DNA of 64,000 nucleotides from an uncultured bacterium (GTDB lineage: Bacteria > Babelota > Babeliae > Babelales > Vermiphilaceae). Position numbers and translations under genes: made by a program. Of the stretch, positions 173-47,371 are shown piece after piece (positions within the stretch are counted from its first letter, which is position 1; each line of letters starts with the position of its first letter). The notes beneath the pieces are model-generated. The model saw nothing but the letters and a program-made list of their open reading frames with translations, was not told the DNA's origin and ran no database searches. The DNA is taken from assembly GCA_963695335.1 (NCBI GenBank), contig OY968764.1, positions 960,001-1,024,000 on the forward strand, given 5' to 3'.

Positions 173-3100
173 ATGTTGTATGTACGCATTTCTAATTTTT
201 TATTTTTATTCTTATTAATCTCATTGTTTATGCAACCATTACAAGCTCAATTGCCTGATATATTATATGTTCATCTTGAAAAAGATATAAACAATATTGA
301 GAATGTTATTGTTCAAATTATTAAGTTAGATCAACAAGATAATTCTATTTTGCATGCATTCAAAGATTACATCTCTCAAGGGTTTTTTATTGCAGAAAAT
401 AAAGATGTTCTTGCTGTTCTGGAATACGCAACATCTGTTTTGCAACGTAACTCTCATAAATTAAATTACGAAAAAGTGGTACAGTTGTATGATGATATTG
501 CAGCTTTGAAAGATCGAATTATTAATGGAGATTTAGAAATTAATCCTGAATCATTAGAAACAACTAAAGTCTTAAGATTAATGTATCGAGAAAATAATAT
601 ACCGAATTTTTTGAATGCTTTCATTATAAATAGAAACTTAGATGTTCTTGGTAAAACTACGCTCAGAAAACATCTTCTTACAAAACAAGGTGCTCATATA
701 GAGGGAAAACTTAAAGTTGGTAAACATGCTAAATTTAAAGATGATGTAACATTTAAGAAAAATGTGAATATTGATGGCACTCTTTCAACGGATAATTTAG
801 TAGTCACTAATTGTATTGATGATTTGTGTGTTAATAATCTTTCAGTTGTTGATTTAATTGTTAGTGGAACAGTGACTGGTATCACTGGTGGCTTTGGTAA
901 TACTGGAGCAACTGGTGCTACTGGTGCAACGGGCGTCACAGGCGCGGGGGTAACAGGTGCAACTGGTAATACAGGTGCAACCGGTGCAGTTGGTCCTACT
1001 GGACCTGGCGCAGGAGCAACAGGTAATACTGGAGCTACAGGATCTACTGGAACAACTGGATTTACAGGTGCTACTGGACCTACAGGCGCGACTGGCGCAG
1101 GAGCAACAGGTGCAACCGGAGTAACGGGATCTACAGGAAATACTGGGGCAACAGGCGTAACAGGCGTCACTGGGGCAGGAGTAACGGGCCCAACTGGATC
1201 AACAGGTGTAACTGGAAATACTGGTGTAACAGGTAACACAGGAGCTACTGGTGCAACAGGTGCAGGTACAACTGGAAATACCGGTTCAACAGGTGCAACG
1301 GGTGCAACTGGTTCAATCTCTTCAGTTGTTGCACAATTAACAGTAACTGGAACTTTATCTGTAAATGATGCGATAATAACAACACTTACTGTTCCTAGTT
1401 TTACAACAGCTGGTGTTGTCCATAATGATGCTTCAGGAAATTTATCAAGTTCATTAATCGTTAATGCTGATGTTGATCCAAACGCATCAATTATTGACAC
1501 AAAATTGGCAACAATTGCTACTCCTGGTAAAGTTGCTAATTCTGCAACAAGTGCAACAAGTGTTAATACCCCAAGTACTATAGTATTACGTGATGTTAAT
1601 GGTAATTTTTCAGCTAATACAGTCAGTTTTAATGATGCAGTGATAGGAAGTCTGACTATTACAACACCAATAACAAATATAACTATTAATGCACTATCGG
1701 TAGTTAATGAAACAATTAGTGGTACATTATCGGTTCAAAATGAAGTTATTAATGGACCACTACAATTAACAACACTAACTCCAGCGGGAGTTTTGCATAA
1801 TGATGCATCAGGAAATATTACCAGTTCATTAATTGTTAATGCTGATATTGCTGCAAACGCTGGTATATCCAATGGTAAATTAGCAACTCTTACTGCTGCT
1901 GGATTAGTTGCCAATTCTGCTACGACAGCAACCAATGCTAATACAGCAAATGCAATTGTTGCACGTGATGCATCAGGCAATTTCTCAGCAGGTACAATCA
2001 CTGCCAGCTTAAATGGTAACGCAACAACTGCAACAACAGCTACTAATTTTTCTGGATCATTAAGTGGTGATGTTACCGGCATACAAAGTGCAACAGTGGT
2101 TAGCTTTGTTGGTGGACAAACTGCTGCCAATGTTGCTGCAGCAACGGTTCTTGCTAATAATGCCACCAATCTCGATACAGTGAACACCATAGTCAAACGA
2201 GATAGTAATGGTAATTTTGCAGCTTCAATCATCAGCATGACTGATGGTGTTCATAGTGGAAACTTAGTTTTAAGCATTGCAACTTCTACTTCAACAACAG
2301 GCAATATTATAAAAGGTTCAAATAGATTTATTCATAACTTTGGAACGAACAATACGTTTGTTGGTATTAATGCAGGTAATTTTACAACGAGTGGTCCAGG
2401 TGGAAACAGTGCATTAGGAGTGAATGCTTTAACAATAAATAGCTCTGGATCATATAATACGGCTGTTGGATATCAAACGCTTACTGCAAATACTATTGGT
2501 GTTGATAATACCGCTGTTGGATATAATGCCCTTGCAGTAAATACAACAGGTACTGATAATACCGCAATTGGTTATAACGCACTTGCTGCAAATGCAACAG
2601 GAACAAGTTTTAATACTGCGATTGGTAGTAGTGCATTAGCGGCAAATACGACTGGTTTAAATAATACGGCAGTTGGTTATCAGGCATTATCAACGAATAT
2701 AACTGGTTCAAATAATATTGCTCTTGGTTATCAATCAGGAAGTACTCTTACTACAGGTAGTGATAATATCTATATAAATGCTCCTGCAGGATCAGCGAGT
2801 GAAAGCAATACAACACGCATTGGTACATCACAAACAGCTTGTTTTGTTTCAGGAATTAATGGAACAGGAATATCAGGTGATGCAGTATCAATCAATAGCA
2901 ATGGACAGCTTGGTATTACATTTTCTTCGCGTAGATTTAAACACGATATAGAAGATATGGGAGATTTTTCAGAAAATATATTAAAACTGCGCCCTGTTAC
3001 TTTTGTTTATAATAATGATGAACTGCATGCGCAAGAAATTGGTTTAATTGCTGAAGAAGTTGATGAACTGTTCCCTACAATGGTTGCAAAAGATAAAGAA

Positions 3101-44914: not shown

Positions 44915-47371
44915 TTATTCTAAATTCAATGCCGCTGTAGTCATTGCTGCAGCAATACCTCTGAGCATTGCACCAAATTTTTGATTATCAGCTTGAAGAT
45001 CTTGCACAATACCATTTAATTTTTGCACTTCATTGAGAAGTAACATAGGTAATAAATGATAGCGTACAGTGTATGGTGTGCCTTCTTCATCGCGGATAAC
45101 TAATGCAGGGAATACTTGATCAACTTCTTCAGCAATTAAACCATACTGTTTTGTTTCTGTTGCATCGCTATTATACACAAAGGTTACAGGATGCAAGTTG
45201 TATATATTTTCTGAATCAACATAGTCCATATCTTCTATGTTATGTTTGAATCTTTGTGAAGAAACAACCGTTCCTAATTGACCCGCTGCATCAACAAACA
45301 CTGGTATACCAGTACCGCCAACAACACTTGTGAACACACCTTGTAAAAATGCTGCTGTATGAGTAGCAGTTGTACCAATACGTATAATACCACTTTCAGT
45401 TGCAACACCAGGATTTGATATATAAATGTTATCATCACCAACTGTCAAACTCACTCCAGCGTTAAATCCAACAATAACATTCGTATCACCGGTTGCTGCA
45501 AATGCTGCTGCATTGTTTCCTACGAAAACGTTATTGAGTCCTGTTGAACTAAATCCTGCCTGGAATCCAACTGCCACATTACCAGAACCAACTATATTAG
45601 ATGCTAATGTAAAGCCACCAAGCGCGGTATTTTCATTACCTGTTGTGTTTGATGTTAAAGCAAATGCACCCACTGCTACGTTATTTTCTCCAATAGTATT
45701 GCCTGGTAAAGCAAATCCACCAACCGCTACGTTTTCAAAACCTGTTGTGTTTGAAGATAATGCTTGACGTCCAATACCCACGTTTTCAGCACCAGTTGTG
45801 GTAAAATTACCAGCATTTATACCAACAAAGGTGTTATCAGTTCCAAAATTATGAATAAATCTGATACCACCCTTAAGAACGTTACCGATAAGAGGACTTA
45901 TTGAGTTATTCATAAGAAGATTACAACCAACAATCACGTCACACGCACTGATTGTTCCACCAGAGATTTCACCTACTGATAAGTTATCAATAGAAGCATC
46001 TACCGCAGAAAAATTGATAACGCAAAGATTTTCTATGCAATCATTAACAACTAAATCATTAACGGATAATGAATCAATAGAAGCATCAACTGCCGAAAAA
46101 TCGATAACACAAAGACTATCAAGACAGCTTGCAATAATAATGTCACCTACAGACAAATTATCAATCGTTGCATTAACTGCTGATAAATTAATCACACAAA
46201 GATTTTCCATACAACTATTTACAACTAACTCATTAACCGATAACGAACCAATAAATGCATCAGTTGCTGATAGATTAACAACACAAAGACTATCAATACA
46301 ACTTAAAACAATAATCTCTCCTATAGATAAATTATCGATAACAGCATTAACTGCTGATAAATTCTCAACACATAAATTGTCTATACAGCTGTTTACTACT
46401 AATTCATTAACCGATAATGAATTAATAAATGCATCAGTTGCGGATAAGTTAGTAACGCAAAGGTTATCAATACAGCTAAGAACTGTTAGATCTGTAACAG
46501 ACAAGTTAGTGACACAAAGATTTTCCACACAGCTCAATATAATTATATCAGTGACAGTTAAATTATTTACACAAAGATGATCAAGACAACTACCAATAGG
46601 AAAAATAATATCAATAACCGTTAATTCATTCACACAAAGATTATCAATACAACTCAGTACTACTAAATCAGATACCGTTAATGTACCTTCTATAGTAACA
46701 TCTTCTTCAAATTCAACATCATCTTTAAACTTAACTTCATCATAAAACTTAACATCATCTTTAAATTTAACCTTATTCAAAAATTCAACTTTTTGTCTTA
46801 TTTTAATCAACTTACATTGTCTTACAGGGCAACAATGATCAGATTCTGTTGTAAAGCATTGTCTAATAATTCTAGCATCTTCAACAATAGAAGGGTCTCC
46901 TAAAGCTGAAGGTAAATCTAAAGCCTCAATAATTTTTTGTGAATCAACGGTAAGTTGTTCATTAACAACTTTATTAACTACCTCTTCAAGAGATTGAGAA
47001 AGATCTTGCGCTTCTTGAGCATCCATTCTTAAATAATTTTCTTGTAACACAGTTTCAGCGTAACCCAAAACTTCTATAACAAAATCATACAATCCAACCG
47101 AAAAATCTTCTTCAATATTGTTTTTCAATTCATGCACTAAAGATTCTTGATTCTCATCAAATTCACTAATAGCAGACACTACTTTGTATAAATCGCTAAC
47201 ATCTTTCCCGATATAAATATATTTCATACCACTAGCTTCTAACAGCTCACGTAATTCTGTATCTGAAATATACGCTTCATCTTTTGTAATCGCTTGCATG
47301 TGAAGCGAAAAAAACAAAAGTCCAACGTGTAAAAACAGGCGATGGACTCGATTAAACCGAAGATTTTTCAT
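44915..47371 (-). CDS. Secreted fibre/adhesin-like protein 7 (818 aa): N-terminal helical domain, expanded Cys-rich repeats, short beta-roll, peptidase S74 chaperone
   Basis: SD aaaggg and a leader ending MQA|IT. About ten SCIDNLCVxNLS repeats. SSQRFKHNIEDM...LHPVTFVY...YGLIAEEV. Confidence 0.85.
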   Translation of the reverse strand: MKNLRFNRVHRLFLHVGLLFFSLHMQAITKDEAYISDTELRELLEASGMKYIYIGKDVSDLYKVVSAISEFDENQESLVHELKNNIEEDFSVGLYDFVIEVLGYAETVLQENYLRMDAQEAQDLSQSLEEVVNKVVNEQLTVDSQKIIEALDLPSALGDPSIVEDARIIRQCFTTESDHCCPVRQCKLIKIRQKVEFLNKVKFKDDVKFYDEVKFKDDVEFEEDVTIEGTLTVSDLVVLSCIDNLCVNELTVIDIIFPIGSCLDHLCVNNLTVTDIIILSCVENLCVTNLSVTDLTVLSCIDNLCVTNLSATDAFINSLSVNELVVNSCIDNLCVENLSAVNAVIDNLSIGEIIVLSCIDSLCVVNLSATDAFIGSLSVNELVVNSCMENLCVINLSAVNATIDNLSVGDIIIASCLDSLCVIDFSAVDASIDSLSVNDLVVNDCIENLCVINFSAVDASIDNLSVGEISGGTISACDVIVGCNLLMNNSISPLIGNVLKGGIRFIHNFGTDNTFVGINAGNFTTTGAENVGIGRQALSSNTTGFENVAVGGFALPGNTIGENNVAVGAFALTSNTTGNENTALGGFTLASNIVGSGNVAVGFQAGFSSTGLNNVFVGNNAAAFAATGDTNVIVGFNAGVSLTVGDDNIYISNPGVATESGIIRIGTTATHTAAFLQGVFTSVVGGTGIPVFVDAAGQLGTVVSSQRFKHNIEDMDYVDSENIYNLHPVTFVYNSDATETKQYGLIAEEVDQVFPALVIRDEEGTPYTVRYHLLPMLLLNEVQKLNGIVQDLQADNQKFGAMLRGIAAAMTTAALNLE

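Follow-up and report, generated by a model that had tools for sequence, protein, structure and literature searches.

The closest described systems to the genes considered here are the mosaic adhesive trimer (MAT) fibres of Bdellovibrio, for which the available text of the source report gives 13 members with a Peptidase_S74 (S74) domain and eight without one (PMC10769870). According to the same text, these fibres have a signal peptide, a conserved base and a variable tip; their surface display has been shown, they are found also in a vesicle, and their anchoring and export are left open (PMC10769870). One of them, Bd3182, has 922 aa and a length of 55 nm (PMC10769870). Here we describe an array of S74 fibre genes in a 64,000-nucleotide stretch of DNA, hereafter the window (positions 960,001 to 1,024,000 of contig OY968764.1, assembly GCA_963695335.1), from an uncultured bacterium of the phylum Babelota, family Vermiphilaceae. 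The array probably belongs to an inherited, phage-free repertoire of exported homotrimeric adhesive fibres in a Babeliales-type (Dependentiae) parasite; that the ligand of these fibres lies on a eukaryotic host we can only infer.

As far as the available MAT text allows comparison, both systems are chromosomal, phage-free repertoires with 13 S74 members. In both, a signal peptide, here a leader-like start by sequence, is combined with a conserved N-terminal domain of unknown partner, a mosaic trimeric shaft, and either an S74 chaperone or a swapped non-S74 tip. The N-terminal domains differ in a comparison made without direct alignment: that of the MATs is beta-rich, ~130 aa long and present in all members, whereas that of the array fibres (the H domain) is acidic, helical and dispensable, being absent from three of 13. 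The MAT capping-loop motif V-G-G/N-pi-x-x-P-x-x-x-L was found in none of the 13 fibres of the source genome with an approximating regular expression. Members of the array type reach 5365-7388 aa, against about 1000 in the MATs, their genes are clustered round dif, they belong to a protist parasite rather than a predator of bacteria, and they may have a second, N-terminal processing site. Judged from their sequences, the array fibres would work like MAT fibres and yet fail membership of that family, both in base domain and in loop motif. The concept of a domesticated tail fibre, put forward as a candidate system in the initial annotation, is therefore not novel, since the MATs are built in the same way and S74 fibres with leaders are common among other bacteria. 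New here are the lineage, the extreme fibre lengths, the expansion of the array around dif, and a base domain that is helical and possibly cleavable.

Phage tail fibres and tailspikes with a C-terminal chaperone (Peptidase_S74; 6f45, 8hqz, K1F endosialidase) share with the array fibres the Ser/Lys dyad, the coiled coil, 14-aa repeats, collagen, decoration-type modules and further shaft modules. The array fibres differ in having a Sec-type leader and Cys pairs, in lacking a virion-attachment domain and virion genes, and in being under purifying selection as host genes. Secreted bacterial proteins annotated as ‘tail fiber domain-containing’ (one named from Verrucomicrobiales) likewise combine a leader, NTAVG-type repeats and S74; these other secreted S74 proteins carry different N-terminal domains or none. 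A search for S74 fibre homologues gave 4395 matches at E<=1e-10 among 8000 candidates scored, and a leader-like start was present in 56 of the 89 matches without an H domain that were examined. Trimeric autotransporter adhesins of the YadA type are also Sec-exported, trimeric and modular, with short beta-repeat heads. The array fibres have the opposite polarity and no barrel, and their C-terminus would be a self-cleaving chaperone. The absence of a YadA-type barrel, claimed at the outset, was borne out: the C-termini consist of S74 plus coiled coil, and YadA_anchor (PF03895) was found in none of the five genomes searched.

The source genome (G000) is a single contig of 1.367 Mb with 35.7% GC, 94% complete by markers. 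Fibre genes of the array are labelled F0 to F7, and positions are those of the window unless G000 or an L-number is given. All seven paralogous open reading frames (ORFs) of the initial annotation are present at the positions and sizes it gave, and they occupy 45,090 of the 47,199 bases (95.5%) from 173 to 47371, in keeping with its statement that they fill almost all of the first 47 kb. F2 starts at the ATG at 3372, which has its own Shine-Dalgarno (SD) sequence, giving 1950 aa. Beyond the seven there is an eighth fibre gene, F0; encoded on the minus strand, it begins at base 32 of the window and runs out of it. The array is interrupted by a 349-aa non-fibre gene and forms two convergent blocks, not a single operon. 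The fibres had been described as being of graded length; no ordered length gradient runs along the array. Its features are as follows.

1..32 (5' end; G000 955812-960032), minus strand: F0, the eighth fibre, 1406 aa, oriented divergently to F1; its leader and H domain precede collagen, a decoration-type module, 14-aa repeats and S74.
173..3301, plus strand: F1, 1042 aa; its leader and H domain (nt 245-559) are followed by a basic beta-strand segment and collagen repeats (aa 236-382), then by shaft, 14-aa repeats, S74 (aa 918-971) and a coiled coil.
3372..9224, plus strand: F2, 1950 aa; leader then shaft directly, without H domain; one ~670-aa module, one decoration-type module, S74.
9406..19191, plus strand: F3, 3261 aa; it has a leader but lacks an H domain, and continues with one ~670-aa module, a decoration-type module, three blocks with 63 14-aa repeats in all, and S74.
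19303..35400, plus strand: F4, 5365 aa; its leader and H domain (nt 19411-19737) are followed by an ITRAP linker, basic strands and a short collagen stretch, after which come four ~670-aa modules, a decoration-type module, repeated shaft units, two tip blocks and S74.
20428..28180, plus strand: the four modules of ~670 aa in F4, beginning at aa 376, 1045, 1715 and 2382; module starts match phrog_4577 (tail protein).
28675..28986, plus strand: decoration-type module of F4 (aa 3125-3228), matching the phage capsid decoration protein PDB 9nx3 (E 7e-08); present in F0, F2 and F3 too.
35555..37915, plus strand: F5, 786 aa; its leader and H domain are followed by an EARAC linker, a beta-strand segment, 22 14-aa repeats and S74 (aa 694-746); member of a genus-wide orthologue clade.
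35648..35974, plus strand: H domain of F5, a predicted acidic helical bundle of ~105 aa.
36035..36187, plus strand: F5 aa 161-211, a confident inter-chain interface in a three-copy model, register i to i+6, triple beta-helix-like.
38131..39180, plus strand: 349-aa leader-bearing propeller candidate, TolB/PD40-like beta-propeller; ancestral resident of a dnaN-recF-[propeller]-ruvC-dnaB block.
39170..39197, minus strand: dif-like site, overlapping the propeller stop; the sole exact match to the pattern in the genome.
39347..44752, minus strand: F6, 1801 aa; its leader, with a loose lipobox (LGAC), and its H domain (nt 44321-44647) precede Cys-pair repeats, 61 14-aa repeats and a divergent S74; member of a genus-wide orthologue clade.
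44915..47371, minus strand: F7, 818 aa; its leader and H domain (nt 46937-47263) are followed by seven CxxxC units with 24 Cys, a short tip and S74 (aa 704-758); it lies at the array's ruvC end and is the most conserved member.
47527..53519, minus strand: right flank with ruvC, two degP/HtrA-like proteases, dnaB and rplI.

F2 and F4 (2319-3374) have ~1050 aa in common, at 79% DNA identity. DNA identity among repeated blocks is 76-91%, and exact matches, between fibre genes or inside one, run to 162 nt at most. Because the repeats have diverged to this extent, the 16-kb F4 is not an assembly artefact, and this origin is ruled out for the giant genes. Very recent gene conversion is also rejected, as identical patches reach only 162 nt. 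The source genome has 13 S74 genes in all, eight in the array, four at 34-49 kb beside a BamA-like gene and one at 1.138 Mb, which together make up 4.8% of its DNA.

A search of relatives for the same architecture, which the initial annotation had proposed, found S74 genes in all ten genus relatives (1-17 matches) and in 70 of 261 phylum genomes (~0.5-2.4 Mb, one order). The order ruvC-F7-F6-propeller-F5-giants recurs completely in G005, G008, G009 and G010 and partially in G006 and G007. F5 and F7 form clades in the H-domain tree (supports 97/91 and 98/97), as does F6 in the S74 tree (100/99); the giants have different sisters in the two trees, which rest on short alignments, with the S74 bootstrap not settled. 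The dN/dS ratio lies between 0.08 and 0.50 in all 12 fibre comparisons and is 0.24 for the propeller as control. The longest fibre among the relatives, in G009, has 7388 aa. Synteny, orthologue clades, dN/dS and the spread of S74 genes among relatives all indicate that the array is an old, selected and vertically inherited host locus.

The locus was also said to have no phage genes around it, and this was upheld over a wider range. TerL (two models), portal, sheath and baseplate J were found neither in the source genome nor in four relatives (PF03237, PF03354, PF04860, PF04984 and PF04865 in none of the five, with positive controls); a search for the tube family PF06841 of extracellular contractile injection systems (eCIS) was uninformative, its control as well as the query matching in none of the five. 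The left flank consists of proS, xerD, dnaN, a recF-like gene and a glycosyltransferase/TPR gene, the xerD-like gene being the only recombinase seen in the flank.

With 31.5-47.7 bits, against a curated cut-off of 22, all seven C-termini of F1 to F7 match Pfam Peptidase_S74; each is followed by a coiled coil, in agreement with the initial annotation. The catalytic Ser and the Lys at +5 are invariant in all seven, and the dyad is present in all 54 S74 sequences listed, relatives included; the Asp of the canonical SDxxxK is replaced by S, T, A, N or M. S74 domains trimerise and fold fibres and then cleave themselves. By analogy with the domains that have been studied, those of the array fibres would act as self-cleaving chaperones. 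An AAAAAGG-type SD sequence and a basic-then-hydrophobic leader are present in all seven genes. Thus the claim that each has its own SD holds, and that of a hydrophobic leader holds by sequence, the leaders of F5, F6 and F7 being weaker (best 19-aa hydropathy 1.27-1.47, against 1.95-2.54 in F1 to F4). Judged by eye and hydropathy, a leader-like start occurs in 13 of 13 fibres of the source genome, and it was also seen in 124 of 145 H-domain homologues. Hydropathy indicates no clear transmembrane segment beyond the leader in the array fibres.

The shafts are assembled from collagen, CxxxC repeats, ~670-aa modules, the capsid-decoration-like module (9nx3), repeated shaft units and 14-aa NTAVG blocks. 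These modules have phage tail and virion homologues (PHROGs; fibres of Pelagibacter, Roseobacter and cyanophages), and no phage homologue among those matched spans 80% of F5. A fibre profile matches PDB 6f45 (E 9.6e-08) and 8hqz, which we take to be the long tail fibre of phage S16 and the L-shaped fibre of T5; residues 250-786 of F5 as a lone query gave no PDB sequence match where the profile query did. The ~670-aa module may be a tailspike-like beta-helix. In a three-copy model, residues 25-214 of F5 scored 0.53 against 0.00 for the best control, with runs sharing at least 64% of contacts and pLDDT of at least 62. The mark applied, calibrated on two copies, is reached by 20 of 30 solved pairs and by one of 23 single chains, and the pass may stem from likeness to solved triple beta-helices. 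In this model only, the region is predicted to form a trimer with a triple beta-helix-like interface at aa 161-211. Residues of the H domain are absent from the confident contacts, which does not speak against contact between H domains.

A 588-aa paralogue of F5 in G005 is 91% identical to it over the first 150 aa and has a non-S74 end, and non-S74 tips on a shared N-terminus are found also in P0098 and P0138. The source genome itself has two leader-bearing collagen fibres with non-S74 tips, for which Pfam gave Collagen only and a BclA/TNF-like tip is a reading by eye. These sequences are direct evidence that tips are exchanged between S74 and non-S74 ends. The repertoire may change through tandem duplication, altered repeat number, module exchange and tip swapping at a dif-flanking site. 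The two collagen fibres, at G000 2243-4600 and 647097-648605, have a helical N-domain and a GPRG/HRG start like fibres A1-A4, and the second lies between a pilin gene and a prepilin peptidase. In G008 at 365-440 kb (L066-L069), several fibre genes are split into 5' H-bearing and 3' S74-bearing parts, through assembly error, decay or phase variation.

Each gene, as read from its sequence, thus comprises a leader, an optional helical H domain, a mosaic shaft of phage modules, a tip, S74 and a coiled coil. Sec would move the chains to the periplasm, where the CxxxC pairs would oxidise. The C-terminal chaperone would then start trimer folding, cut itself at the conserved Ser and expose the tip. 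The initial annotation had found the export route unexplained by any gene in the window, and within the window this stands; elsewhere the genome carries GspC, two GspD-type secretins, a PilM/GspL-like gene, a prepilin peptidase, a pilin, PilB/GspE and a second ATPase (two T2SSE-family members), and two Omp85 proteins. Type II secretion exports folded oligomers and would suit the fibres, because their trimers would be folded by a chaperone. It is possible that these type II secretion and pilus genes provide the export route, including that of the 300-nm fibres. There is perhaps an even chance that the folded trimer crosses the outer membrane through the type II secretion or pilus secretins, or leaves with vesicles.

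The H domain, ~105 aa at the N-terminus, is common to ten of the 13 fibres of the source genome and absent there from F2, F3 and B1. It is predicted to be a helical bundle, with pLDDT of 94-98 over most of its length. A search of 1.84 billion representatives gave 231 matches; all 150 matches listed fall within the first 175 residues. Of the 54 matches of at least 400 aa, 38 have S74 at their end and three, by eye, another globular tip; the others look truncated. The domain was detected in 18 of the 261 phylum genomes, with weaker relatives on further fibres; among the genomes searched it was seen only in this phylum, plus the 231 database representatives. There was no convincing Pfam or PDB sequence match and no Atlas match, no structural match at Z>=8 in 48,161 chains, and none by Foldseek at E<=0.001 in PDB or BFVD, which proves neither a new fold nor a lack of relatives. 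Fibre B1 (G000 1137739-1139601; L014 7739-9601), directly downstream of a transposase-like gene, lacks an N-terminal H domain and has a degenerate piece of one after its S74 and coiled coil. With that query no C-terminal copy was found in 79 family genomes, the matches being N-terminal H domains, and the apparent remnant in B1 is treated as a one-off.

The proposal that these are cell-exported fibres anchored at the N-terminus is supported as far as a cell-encoded, phage-free repertoire of leader-bearing S74 fibres goes. Anchoring is not established. F2 and F3 have no H domain, ten fibres of G023 with a visible 5' end run from the leader straight into repeats without one, and the linker that follows H resembles a cleavage site. 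Lipoprotein anchoring was rejected on the rarity of the lipobox, seen in only two of 145 H-domain homologues.

After the H domain there is a variable acidic linker and then a basic beta-strand or GPRGHRG collagen segment. Arg is present in 65 of 69 such linkers, against 37.6 expected from genome composition, and Lys in 52, against 51.8 (69 of 82 proteins had a definable linker). The Arg is mostly preceded by Thr, and then a small residue comes next; by eye, helical N-domains of a different kind are followed by TRAP/TRGP/ERAP-like motifs in ~14 of 21 fibres that are more distant. In 59 proteins the mean net charge is -10 for H and +2.7 for the following 45 residues. In the type V pili of Bacteroidota, an N-terminal part is removed at Arg by a protease. 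These pili and C11-activated pro-proteins resemble the fibres in idea only, namely removal of an N-terminal part at Arg by a secreted Arg/Lys-specific cysteine protease; no homology is shown, there is no lipoprotein stage, and cleavage of the fibres is hypothetical. Clostripain-family C11 peptidases are found in 257 of the 261 phylum genomes, usually with several matches, and are leader-bearing in the source genome. According to the available text, C11 proteases, whose activating role is exemplified by fragipain, cut after Arg or Lys (10.1101/522870). Apparently a core secreted protease of the phylum, C11 has copies at G000 1144142-1145341 and 301253-302758, and lies within ~10 kb of a fibre gene in G000, G003, G008, G009 and G135. 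Together, the Arg linker, the charges of H and the segment after it, and the spread of C11 suggest that H may be a removable pro-domain. The acidic H domain would thus be either a retention domain or a pro-domain cut at the Arg linker, plausibly by a C11 protease, and we give the anchor and the pro-domain about equal odds. On the pro-domain branch, removal of H would unmask a basic trimeric base able to bind an anionic cell surface.

Cultured members of the Dependentiae/Babelota are intracellular parasites of protists, and the available text on one of them, Chromulinavorax (C. destructans), describes diderm particles of 350-400 nm that are thought to enter by ingestion, appear to shed vesicles in the food vacuole and have dark-staining periplasmic material (PMC6561590). 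Scaled from Bd3182, the fibres would be ~45 to 320 nm long, with F4, at ~320 nm, about as long as the cell is wide. They may bind glycans met outside the host and promote capture or uptake by grazing protists. No description of S74 fibres in Dependentiae was found in the literature searched, which was mainly open literature and left MAT Supplementary Tables 3 and 4 outside; an earlier mention is possible.

Several points weigh against this account. No anchor was found for the fibres and no export gene is linked to the array. A loose leader test is passed by 508 of 1002 ORFs of the source genome, so that leaders are little informative in this lineage and indicate export, not surface display; in the available text on C. 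destructans, 44% of coding sequences have signal peptides, many of them presumed effectors, and fibres are not mentioned (PMC6561590). The S74 motif reads SS, ST or SA where the canonical one has SD. In 191 of the 261 phylum genomes there is no S74 match, so the fibres are not required for the lifestyle generally. C11 is too widespread for its presence to indicate fibre substrates. The Arg-linker test was defined post hoc on rows that are kin, a narrower first motif was marginal (18 of 84, against a shuffle mean of 7.1 and maximum of 17), and the F6 linker has no Arg; it is because of these points about the linker that anchor and pro-domain are given equal odds.

It is unlikely that the same fibres are released rather than held at the surface, either secreted or in outer-membrane vesicles, and act distantly or in the food vacuole as matrix, phage decoy or tether to host membranes or mitochondria. 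The very long shafts with distal tips, reaching 7388 aa in G009, fit projection from the surface, which is where MATs of the same design have been shown (PMC10769870). In favour of release, MATs were found in a vesicle (PMC10769870) and C. destructans appears to shed vesicles in the food vacuole (PMC6561590). Release would agree with the scarcity of lipoboxes, the lack of a C-terminal barrel or of a clear transmembrane segment past the leader, and the absence of anything between leader and shaft in F2, F3 and the ten G023 fibres, and a cleavable linker would free the remainder of the fibre; the cost of 4.8% of the genome would be easier to explain if the fibres were tethered.

A little more doubtful is the idea that the fibres are doubly processed, S74 being shed at the tip and the acidic pro-domain cut at Arg by the phylum-wide C11 after type II secretion. 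A basic triple-beta-helix or collagen foot would then hold the fibre without lipid or barrel, and the coat would enable a tiny non-motile parasite to increase its size, or to ride on prey bacteria, and in this way to be taken in as food by its protist host. If true, this would offer a general route for anchorless secreted S74 fibres and the first entry mechanism for the phylum, and the coat fibres would match the ~0.4-um cell width in length.

That the fibres are periplasmic and structural, with H binding peptidoglycan in the manner of an SLH domain and the trimers bracing a dormant extracellular particle without adhesion, is improbable. With both H models, the SLH domain of OmpM1 (8bz2) ranks among the top structural matches (Z 5.3 and 5.6, rmsd 3.0-3.4, 73-75 of 83 residues), but this match is tied with unrelated helical proteins, a Z under 8 for a helical bundle may reflect a mere common arrangement, and no SLH row appears among the Pfam matches of ten H-domain members. 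The dark-staining periplasmic material in the available account of C. destructans (PMC6561590) would fit such fibres, whereas variable and swapped tips and lengths far beyond the periplasm favour outward display. The weak OmpM1 likeness leaves a wall-binding role for the H domain open. Least probable, and by sequence already largely refuted, is that the fibres serve in trans as the receptor-binding parts of a phage, a tailocin, a gene-transfer agent or a contractile injection system, or are prophage leftovers: nearly all modules have phage homologues and dif-adjacent sites are integration targets of some mobile elements, but TerL, portal, sheath and baseplate J were not found in the source genome and four relatives, all 13 fibres have leaders, order and orthology are conserved across the genus under purifying selection, and a xerD-like gene is the sole flank recombinase.

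Turning to the locus itself, cumulative GC skew of the source genome reaches its maximum at window ~37,600, 1.6 kb from the dif-like site, with the minimum half a genome away. The pattern used for this site, which we take to represent dif, was adjusted after a first genome scan. The site lies 10-33 bp from the propeller stop in all five genus relatives examined and, among more distant loci, within 400 bp of it in ten of 20. Genes across the genome show only a weak orientation bias (367 vs 327), so that the terminus is assigned from skew and dif. With the exception of F0, the fibre genes of the array are all directed toward dif, and they have accumulated on both sides of the terminus, inside a housekeeping block. 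Beside dif, at 39207-39346, the 3' end of F6 and bases past its stop are tandemly duplicated (~76 bp), a recent slippage scar. Unusually, dnaN-recF (G000 952-954 kb) and a dnaA-like gene (1055412-1056854) lie within 60 kb of the skew maximum and dif, near the terminus and not the origin. S74 fibres of another family, which differ in their N-terminus, also occur within 10 kb of the dnaN-recF-propeller block (L046 in G109 and L047 in G106), hinting that the terminus may be a repeated landing place for fibres.

The dnaN-recF-propeller-ruvC-dnaB block is ancestral across the phylum. The propeller, TolB/PD40-like by a weak Atlas match (score 0.93), occurs in 97 of the 261 phylum genomes and adjoins an S74 gene in all eight genus genomes that have it; named homologues are from two ‘Candidatus Babeliales bacterium’ entries and one Aquella sp., and one fibre homologue is from a ‘Candidatus Babeliaceae bacterium’. 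A dedicated role as fibre accessory was rejected: family f13 has the propeller in 15 of 16 genomes and S74 in none of 16, f3 has it in none of 41 though 21 have S74, and S74 is near only two of 20 loci outside the genus. By its distribution, the propeller is a bystander in ancestral synteny. The housekeeping flank of the initial annotation, ruvC and dnaB, was confirmed and extended by two degP genes and rplI, and on the left by proS, xerD, dnaN and a recF-like gene read from translations.

Between ruvC and dnaB lie two tandem DegP/HtrA proteases (48054-51395, minus strand), which could serve periplasmic quality control of the fibres; there is one copy in G005 and G007, and none was seen there in G008, G009 and G010. 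Upstream of rplI-dnaB-ruvC, and in the same direction as F7 and F6, a gene at 53863-54345 (minus strand) encodes a 160-aa protein with a pilin-like start, GFSLLSFL, and no Pfam match; it is conserved in the genus, and G006 and G007 have a second pilin-like gene. A 632-aa leader-bearing protein of no recognised family, with a Tyr/Gly-rich middle (54672-56570, plus strand), is conserved in place across the genus. At 58196-61053 (minus strand) an isoleucyl-tRNA-synthetase-like gene (class I tRNA-synt_1 and anticodon domains), presumably ileS by its motif, is in four pieces in different frames; because such a gene is essential, its fragmentation suggests indel errors in the assembly. A ppsA-like gene at L014 11724-14126 is likewise in pieces.

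The array provides named, testable candidates for how Dependentiae/Babelota reach and choose their protist hosts. The repertoire is costly (4.8% of a 1.37-Mb genome), selected and fast-shuffling, and has S74 counterparts in 70 of the 261 phylum genomes. In it, the MAT design would have been reached with a different base domain in an intracellular parasite. The question of export and holding raised by the MAT report becomes testable, since members with, without and with a displaced H domain stand side by side, and the Arg linker makes a precise prediction. The fibres may also be a source of very long natural trimeric scaffolds and of new binding tips.

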